Below are positions 57,585-57,976 of a stretch of DNA of 64,000 bases, piece by piece (positions within the stretch are counted from its first letter, which is position 1; every line of letters begins with the position of its first letter). The notes under the pieces are model-generated. The model saw only the letters and a list, made by a program, of their open reading frames with translations, ran no database searches and was not told the DNA's origin. The stretch lies in NCBI RefSeq assembly GCF_058153355.1, contig NZ_CM177019.1; one strand, 5' to 3'. The translations under genes were made by a program, and so were the position numbers.

Positions 57585-57639
57585 ATGTCGTAGGTCTGAC
57601 TCACCCATTTTTTGGGCGTTGGTGTATAATCCAGCGCCT

Positions 57640-57780
57640 TTGTCAATCAATGGTGGCTCAGGCGGGGGCTTCTTCGGAAGCGCCGGTATCCTTCAGAGCC
57701 GGTTACGCCAACCCTGTCTGGGCTACCACCAGCGAAATTGGCGTTTCCGGTGGTAGCGTAACCTGCTATCTGAAGGAGGC
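57640..57780 (+). ncRNA. candidate C4/CI-like antisense immunity RNA region (overlaps an Ash-family-type pseudo-ORF)
   Basis: TATAAT at 57625-57630. Three hairpins are present: GCTTC-TTCG-GAAGC, a CCGG...CCGG hairpin with loop TATCCTTCAGAG, and a 9-bp stem GCTACCACC/GGTGGTAGC. The loop 9-mer TCCTTCAGA is complementary to the icd-like SD region. Confidence 0.5.
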
Positions 57781-57787
57781 TGCCGAC

Positions 57788-57976
57788 ATGGCTACTACCC
57801 CTACCCTTGTACATTCTCAAACCGTCTTTCTCTGGCGCTTTATCGCCCTGAGCACAGCACAACCGCGCGTGATTCACATCGTGGCCACCAGCGAACAGGA
57901 AGCCCGCCAGCAATCTCCGGCTGGCTGCGTGATGGTATTCGCCGCCCGTATTCGTCAGGAGGTGGGCCATGATTAA
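57788..57976 (+). CDS. icd: host cell division inhibitor Icd-like protein
   Basis: 62 aa, MATTPTLVHSQTVFLWRFIALSTAQPRVIHIVATSEQEARQQSPAGCVMVFAARIRQE. The strong SD GAAGGAGG sits 8 nt upstream. The pattern (FxWRF...ATSEQEAR...FAARI) matches P1/P4 Icd-like proteins. Confidence 0.75.
   Translation: MATTPTLVHSQTVFLWRFIALSTAQPRVIHIVATSEQEARQQSPAGCVMVFAARIRQEVGHD

Follow-up and report, generated by a model that had tools for sequence, protein, structure and literature searches.

A probable P4-type RNA immunity cassette with a C4 antisense RNA beneath an 'Ash family' reading frame in Escherichia coli

Introduction

Does the DNA just upstream of a small Icd-like gene in an integrative element of Escherichia coli encode a protein, or an antisense RNA? 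In the E. coli records that we inspected, the cassette is annotated as an 'ash family protein' or an 'Icd-like protein', with no RNA gene. We analyzed one copy within a window of 64,000 nucleotides (nt) from RefSeq assembly GCF_058153355.1 (contig NZ_CM177019.1), the whole stretch of DNA considered here, whose positions are used throughout. The window is E. coli chromosome of the ygfT-uacT region (98.7-99.9% identity), and the integrative element in it adjoins tRNA-Gly(CCC). An original prediction, made from the sequence, had placed at this locus an RNA resembling C4 of phage P1 and CI of satellite P4, with a loop complementary to the Shine-Dalgarno (SD) sequence of the Icd-like gene. Our analysis makes it highly probable that 57470-57976 is a P4-type (and P1 immI-like) RNA immunity cassette, carried by a P4-like or phage-inducible chromosomal island (PICI)-like integrative element.

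Results

A C4-type RNA and its target boxes

The covariance search that the original prediction had proposed was positive for two Rfam families, C4 and isrK, both above their cut-offs. The C4 RNA, its target boxes and the gene behind them are made up of the following features.

57646-57733, plus strand: C4 / P4 CI-type antisense RNA (Rfam RF01695, 79.9 bits against a cut-off of 45, model positions 1-87 of 87)
57651-67 / 57712-28, plus strand: C4 outer stem, 17 base pairs (bp)
57668-72 / 57677-81, plus strand: UUCG hairpin, GCUUC / GAAGC
57682-86 / 57699-57703, plus strand: loop-bearing C4 hairpin, GCCGG / CCGGU, with a 12-nt loop (57687-57698)
57689-97, plus strand: specificity segment b', TCCTTCAGA, within the 12-nt loop of this second C4 hairpin
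57705-11, plus strand: specificity segment a', ACGCCAA, in the C4 junction
57722-57757, plus strand: hairpin presenting box a2, with a 9-bp stem of GCTACCACC (57722-30) and GGTGGTAGC (57749-57)
57738-44, plus strand: box a2, TTGGCGT, at the loop centre of the 9-bp stem, complement of a'
57769-77, plus strand: box b2, TCTGAAGGA, exact reverse complement of b' and equivalent of P4 seqC
57772-79, plus strand: SD sequence GAAGGAGG, overlapped by b2, 8 nt 5' of the ATG at 57788
57788-57976, plus strand: Icd-like / P4 Kil-like open reading frame (ORF) of 62 amino acids (NCBIfam NF033153, phage_ICD_like, 69.3 bits against a cut-off of 25)

The full-length match bears out the C4/CI-like antisense RNA. 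The UUCG hairpin and the 9-bp stem were found where the original prediction had put them, as was the loop 9-mer complementary to the SD-overlapping box, and the family match confirms that the downstream gene is icd-like. The C4 segment folds alone into the family structure, with a minimum free energy (MFE) of -46.4 kcal/mol (z = -4.8). The 9-mer TCCTTCAGA/TCTGAAGGA has four matches in the window, both strands counted, where chance would give 0.39.

Two further elements had gone unnoticed: a pairing between a' and a2, and copies of the a2 and b2 boxes (a1 and b1) upstream, in an isrK-like RNA. The boxes run in the order a1-b1 / b'-a' / a2-b2. The b pairs have predicted duplex energies of -14.2 and -12.2 kcal/mol, and the two a pairs -10.3 kcal/mol each. 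The a2 hairpin uses the 3' end of the C4 outer stem as its 5' arm, so that only one of the two structures can form at a time. In the MFE fold of the read-through RNA (57506-57800), the loop pairs with the SD in cis.

A tblastn search of phage records with the Icd-like protein returned a single match; the protein is short and divergent, which accounts for this, and the NCBIfam hidden Markov model is the better test. The ORF at 57788-57976 is predicted to be the first gene controlled by the antisense RNA.

The boxes change in step across viral loci

If the pairings matter, the boxes should vary together. We scanned viral contigs with a DNA pattern in which the UUCG-type hairpin and the loop-bearing hairpin's stem are fixed and both specificity segments are free. 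The scan returned about 120 contigs (L011-L130), nearly all with a C4-like RNA, and from these 93 distinct loci. For each we recorded the longest exact complement of the loop and of the junction in the 170 nt downstream and the 230 nt upstream, in cognate and in non-cognate combinations.

Downstream, the median complement was 9 (cognate) versus 5 (non-cognate) for the b' loop and 7 versus 5 for the a' junction; upstream, it was 8 versus 5 and 7 versus 5, respectively. A length of 9 was reached in only 16 of 8,400 non-cognate combinations (0.19%), whereas it is the cognate median, so the 9-base match between loop and SD exceeds chance. Locus by locus, all the boxes change in step.

Pairing statistics were computed on an unfitted MAFFT alignment of 82 sequences. 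In the combined structure 90.5% of the cells are paired, a figure that drops to 37-48% in slid controls. Pairing reaches 98.1% in the outer stem, where 13 of the 17 pairs have changed on both sides. Compensatory pairs number four of five in the UUCG hairpin and six of seven in a'-a2, and eight of the nine b'-b2 pairs show two-sided changes. The loop-bearing hairpin is invariant in this alignment because the search pattern fixed its stem. Co-variation across 82-93 independent loci thus supports the loop-to-SD pairing that had been proposed from a single sequence.

The hairpin around a2 is also a general feature. It is 88.7% paired in the alignment, with six of nine pairs compensatory (slid controls, 28-62%), and a stem of at least 7 bp surrounds a2 in 78 of 92 loci, versus 2 of 92 after shuffling. 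A b2 of 7 nt or more is present in 78 loci, and in 73 of them the box ends 7-12 nt ahead of the ATG. Under strict thresholds, all four boxes stand in the correct order in 55 of the 93 loci.

The a and b boxes reassort independently. Across the 93 loci, 29 a boxes combine with 50 b loops in 67 ways, and 15 b loops are each seen with at least two a boxes. For instance, the b' loop of the window recurs in one viral locus (L099) with a different a', and its a' recurs in another (L078) with a different b'. The gene after b2 varies as well: some loci have an Icd-like gene, and others have a Rha-like gene (~183 amino acids), a gene for a 76-amino-acid 'MANRKQ' protein or something else.

An isrK-like leader precedes the C4 RNA

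Upstream of C4, the scans of the whole window found a second RNA with its own promoter and terminator.

57470-57499, plus strand: sigma-70-like promoter, TTGATC, 18 nt, TATGAT (promoter scan), which aligns with P4 and matches in position its promoter upstream of seqA
57506-57583, plus strand: isrK / P4 seqA-type leader RNA (Rfam RF01394, 68.8 bits against a cut-off of 50)
57531-37, plus strand: box a1, TTGGCGT, in a hairpin loop of the isrK-like RNA
57547-54, plus strand: box b1, TCTGAAGG, in a single-stranded stretch of the isrK-like RNA
57563-77, with a T-run at 57578-84, plus strand: stem of the intrinsic terminator of the isrK-like RNA (terminator scan)
57614-57639, plus strand: spacer hairpin of 9 bp (57614-22 / 57631-39; by folding), with TATAAT (57625-30) in its loop

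From 5' to 3', the leader consists of a hairpin, a second hairpin that presents a1, the single-stranded b1 and the intrinsic terminator. Its match begins 7 nt 3' of the -10 element of the promoter at 57470-99, which looks constitutive and drives this isrK/seqA-type leader. Rfam also holds a family named for the upstream target copy of C4 systems, c4-a1b1 (RF03163). Its match here (57493-57545) is below threshold, at 32 bits against a cut-off of 46.7, and several related loci exceed that cut-off.

The original prediction had also pointed to the TATAAT at 57625-30. The hexamer is present but not conserved. Only 3 of 16 homologous spacers have it, and a -10-like hexamer of any kind precedes C4 in only 8 of the 93 loci. 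The arms of the spacer hairpin, judged by eye, stay complementary around this unconserved motif in homologous spacers. The promoter scan found no -35 partner for it. We therefore rejected TATAAT as a dedicated promoter of general occurrence, given its missing -35, poor conservation and location in a hairpin loop, although it may serve as a promoter in this particular allele. According to the portion of the P4 work summarized in PMC10111431, CI is processed from the transcript of a constitutive promoter inside eta. In Gifsy-1, the RNA corresponding to C4/CI is lost when the isrK promoter is deleted (PMC4825925).

The Ash frame is an open frame over an RNA cassette

The 'Ash family protein' frame crosses both RNAs, and its plausible start lies upstream of the isrK promoter.

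57398-57976, plus strand: eta-like open frame ('Ash family protein'), with an ATG at 57398 preceded by a GAGG SD, running in frame into the Icd-like ORF

Pfam Phage_ASH (PF10554) matches residues 381-487 of a 539-amino-acid ORF called mechanically at 56357-57976, with 112-121 bits. The match corresponds to about 57497-57817, a span made up of isrK, the spacer, C4, the a2/b2 region and the first icd codons. PHROG matches cover only residues 345-538. We rejected the 539-amino-acid ORF as one protein, its first 344 residues having no family match and overlapping two minus-strand genes.

What, then, has been conserved? In 13 collinear loci, the ratio of third-position to first- and second-position entropy along the Ash frame is 0.77-1.10 in the isrK, spacer, C4 and seqC-like segments, versus 1.90 in the icd-like coding sequence. 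Over the Ash part, the loci are 65.5% identical in amino acids and 79.4% in nucleotides. Because there is no third-position excess and the amino acids are less conserved than the nucleotides, the conservation of the Ash family stems from the RNA. These loci gave no sign of amino-acid-level selection on PF10554 as a protein family, and its match coincides with the RNA cassette, from isrK to the SD. Both facts tell against a plain Ash protein gene with incidental RNA-like features, as do two covariance models far above their cut-offs and stems with compensatory changes. The same holds for P4, where PF10554 matches the old 'cI gene product' ORF overlying the CI RNA and P4 epsilon matches PF25738 (L131 7888-8175 and 8168-8584, minus strand), yet the P4 repressor and trans-acting immunity factor is described, in those portions of the literature that PMC3632133 and PMC10111431 summarize, as an RNA, the processed CI. 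In Gifsy-1, orf45 is likewise conserved in nucleotides and variable in amino acids (PMC4825925).

A protein gene does have points in its favor. The Prokaryotic Genome Annotation Pipeline (PGAP) calls an 'ash family protein' on homologous E. coli stretches, and PF10554 matches with the scores given above. A conserved AUG, located where C4 has its 5' end, belongs to the Ash frame, and in 72 of the 93 loci this frame stays open across 40 or more codons upstream and 30 or more downstream, whereas the other two frames do so in 5 and 12. Even the hypervariable loop codons are nearly free of stops in the Ash frame (3 of 536; the other two frames have 22 of 469 and 34 of 536). Moreover, a tagged product of Gifsy-1 orf45, which couples to the next gene, has been detected (PMC4825925), and from the spacing we infer that orf45 is in the same frame as Ash.

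The original prediction had regarded the Ash-type ORF as a translation of the RNA gene. This is right as to the source of conservation and wrong if it means a pure annotation artefact, since the frame is kept open. The stretch is an RNA cassette overlapped by a translated frame. A kept-open frame fits both Gifsy-1 orf45 (PMC4825925) and the eta/kil arrangement of P4, in which, according to what PMC10111431 summarizes (citing Forti 1999), CI lies inside eta, Kil is a truncated form, and translation of eta from the upstream late promoter prevents termination.

This has a bearing on annotation. A survey of P4-like satellites used PF10554 as a marker of epsilon (PMC8628076); since PF10554 matches the 'cI' ORF and epsilon matches PF25738, the survey probably detected the RNA immunity cassette. 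In E. coli 035152 (L001 3611-4678), a PGAP 'ash family protein' of 355 amino acids overruns a 64-amino-acid Icd-like ORF (~4273-4467) that lies in another frame and is unannotated. The two frames are offset there because the spacing between C4 and the start codon differs by 1 nt.

The surrounding element

Family matches identify an integrase, the int-alpA RNA motif, AlpA and AntA in the element, and DUF4222 and a D5_N primase 3' of the cassette. The neighboring features are these.

54202-54269, at the 3' end of the integrase ORF and 5' of alpA: int-alpA RNA motif (RF02996, 45.5 bits)
56755-56961, minus strand: phrog_21027-family gene (PHROG match), between antA and the eta-like start
57019-57198, minus strand: YlcI/YnfO-family gene (family match), between antA and the eta-like start
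57969-58000, plus strand: start of the next ORF of the operon, whose ATG overlaps the icd-like stop and which is interrupted by an IS66-family insertion
58001-60469: IS66-family element, with an 8-bp target duplication, CTTAACCG, at 57993-58000 and 60470-77
61149-62189: D5_N primase-type ORF, with an IS110-family transposase directly after it
62248-63423: IS110-family transposase, directly after the D5_N primase ORF

The two minus-strand genes are antisense to the long mechanical plus-strand ORF at 56357-57976. The IS66-family element carries orfA (58075), TnpB (58500) and a transposase (58867-60438) between inverted ends GTAAGCG..., and its insertion disrupts an ORF whose translation is coupled to that of the icd-like gene. 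The D5_N primase ORF gives way to the IS110 transposase, so the element's replication gene, too, has probably been truncated. The RF02996 motif was also seen in two other loci (L003 and L123).

Icd-like homologues at other loci

We searched genome contigs with the Icd-like protein and found eight loci, none with C4 or isrK even at a permissive threshold. Homologues of this kind occur in Enterobacter, Superficieibacter and Intestinirhabdus (L005 2920-2991, L008 2926-2997 and L009 2926-2997, minus strand). In these three loci, a SymR-like match that stays under its threshold (29-37 bits; cut-off, 61) lies immediately 5' of the icd-like gene on the opposite strand, and this could represent a different, cis-antisense control. 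In Escherichia ruysiae (L003 2795-3156), an Icd-like domain (88% identical) has no C4 or isrK upstream; it seems to form the C-terminal portion of an extended ORF starting at about 2795, as read by eye.

Discussion

A proposed mechanism

By analogy with P4, P1 and Gifsy-1, read-through transcripts would be processed into a stable C4/CI RNA of ~80 nt. In P4 and P1, RNase P makes the 5' end of the mature RNA. This RNA would pair with a2 and b2 in trans, and in cis before processing, and the pairing would block translation of icd/kil. An icd/kil left untranslated would in turn lead to termination of the transcript, a step proposed from P4, where Rho acts at a terminator (timm) within the kil region that takes effect once kil goes untranslated. 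Termination would keep the downstream replication genes off, and incoming elements with the same a'/b' specificity would be repressed. The a1 and b1 boxes in the short isrK-like RNA might aid termination, as P4 seqA does, or titrate the antisense RNA, as Gifsy-1 IsrK may in its activation in trans. The overlapping eta-like frame, kept open, would allow translation from further upstream to override termination. In this copy, broken by insertion sequences (IS), any remaining role would be trans-immunity. Our account of P4 draws on secondary summaries (PMC10111431, PMC3632133, PMC4825925) and on the P4 sequence (NC_001609), which we read directly; the Rho step comes from that part of the P4 literature which PMC10111431 summarizes.

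Alternative readings

The best-surviving alternative, which we regard as possible though doubtful, is an mRNA switch like that of Gifsy-1, working mainly in cis. The isrK-C4-icd read-through transcript would fold into a form closed to translation, the short isrK-like RNA would open it in trans so that the overlapping frame and icd are translated, and the C4-shaped segment would be no separate repressor. Such a switch was demonstrated with compensatory mutations at isrK-orf45-anrP (PMC4825925). In the window, the isrK promoter and terminator are intact, the MFE fold pairs the loop with the SD in cis as this reading would have it, and both of the mutually exclusive structures, a2 hairpin and C4 outer stem, are conserved. 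However, the window is collinear with P4, where processed CI is described as the trans-acting immunity factor (PMC3632133, PMC10111431), and the outer stem, which defines a discrete, excisable RNA, is 98% paired in the alignment, with 13 of 17 pairs compensatory. The switch and the antisense model are not exclusive, as the short leader could titrate the processed RNA.

Less probable still, and in our judgement unlikely, is that the cassette decayed along with its element into a non-functional relic and plays no present role. It may be one because the downstream operon is interrupted: the IS66-family element splits the ORF after icd, and the IS110-family transposase follows the D5_N primase ORF. 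Yet the cassette is whole, from promoter and terminator to every RNA element, all four boxes, the SD and the icd-like ORF, and in this state it could still confer trans-immunity. Near-identical cassettes are also seen elsewhere, at least 80% of 57506-57800 being found in 294 of 5,426 complete E. coli genomes.

That the stretch is a plain protein gene, the 'Ash family protein' of PF10554, with RNA-like features incidental to coding, is very improbable in view of the entropy, identity and compensatory changes described above.

Several points nevertheless weigh against the antisense-RNA immunity cassette that we favor. The operon that it would control is disrupted by IS66 and IS110 elements. Icd-like genes are not always tied to a C4 RNA, as the eight homologues from other genera without C4 or isrK make clear. 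The role of the a1/b1 copy is divided in the literature, where P4 work assigns it to termination and Gifsy-1 work to activation. The viral loci cover part of the C4 family, because the search pattern fixes a UUCG-type hairpin and a 12-nt loop. Finally, expression, processing and Rho dependence in this strain are carried over from P4, P1 and Gifsy-1.

Wider meaning

Antisense-RNA immunity of this kind is not new: standard Rfam models detect it, and enterobacterial prophages and PICIs have been reported to carry such RNAs (PMC3632133, PMC10111431, PMC4825925). The RNA families, target boxes and mechanism were established for P1, P7 and P4 decades ago and are in Rfam, and the discovery value of this locus is small. 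Its practical value lies in the annotation of cassettes that are now labelled without an RNA gene. In addition, the box sequences let the immunity specificity of satellites and prophages be predicted from sequence alone.

A broader proposal seems to us somewhat more plausible than its negation. The 'Ash family protein' throughout Enterobacteria would be the protein shadow of the isrK-C4 cassette, selected only to stay free of stops, even in the specificity loops, so that translation can override termination. The reassorting a and b boxes (29 x 50 variants, in 67 combinations at the 93 loci) would form a combinatorial heteroimmunity code of P4-like satellites, PICIs and lambdoid prophages. If this is true, protein surveys based on PF10554, such as those that use it as P4 'epsilon', actually count RNA immunity cassettes.

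Comparison with known systems

In P1, Citron and Schuster reportedly found in 1990 that a' and b' of c4 pair with a2 and b2, that b2 lies on the icd ribosome-binding site and that an a1/b1 copy lies upstream. The window shares with immI of P1 and P7 the Rfam RNA family and an Icd-like first gene. It differs in having no ant antirepressor after icd, where replication-type genes (DUF4222 and D5_N primase) are found instead, and in that its upstream target copy sits in an isrK-type RNA that has a terminator of its own.

The isrK-orf45(STnc1160)-anrP locus of Gifsy-1 has in common with the window an isrK RNA with promoter and terminator, followed by a complementary structured segment. In both, an ORF starts near the 5' end of that segment and couples to the next gene. 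STnc1160 is a stable processed RNA, which Hershko-Shalev et al. liken to P4 CI (PMC4825925). Unlike in the window, the downstream gene of Gifsy-1 is the antirepressor anrP rather than an icd-like gene, and its frame stops at the next start codon, whereas that of the window continues into icd. The demonstrated effect of IsrK, moreover, is activation in trans (PMC4825925).

P4 (NC_001609, minus strand) has Rfam C4 at 8420-8507, in its CI region, and isrK at 8615-8692, in its seqA region. The parts of its immunity region (PLE promoter, seqA, CI RNA with seqB, seqC and the nested kil/eta genes) stand in the same order as those of the window, which aligns with P4 collinearly all the way from the promoter to the start codon. 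The four boxes are laid out alike in the two but differ in sequence: in P4, TCCTGTGAA in the loop is complementary to TTCACAGGA at the SD, and TTCTCAC finds its partner GTGAGAA on either side, upstream as well as downstream. A hairpin presents a2 in the window and in P4, and both have an Icd-like first ORF that starts with MATT, of 62 amino acids in the window and 65 in P4. The P4 ORF matches phage_ICD_like with 73.9 bits and is 33% identical to that of the window (E = 4e-7). In both, a longer in-frame ORF passes through the RNA genes, and the context includes an integrase, AlpA and a primase. The differences concern spacing, context and specificity. The spacer from terminator to RNA is 62 nt in the window and ~107 nt in P4. 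The eta-like frame of the window, unlike that of P4, is not beside alpA, because the AntA gene and two minus-strand genes intervene, and the downstream operon of the window is broken by IS elements. The specificity segments themselves are distinct, with b' TCCTTCAGA in the window versus TCCTGTGAA in P4 and a' ACGCCAA versus TTCTCAC, and the window and P4 are therefore predicted to be heteroimmune.

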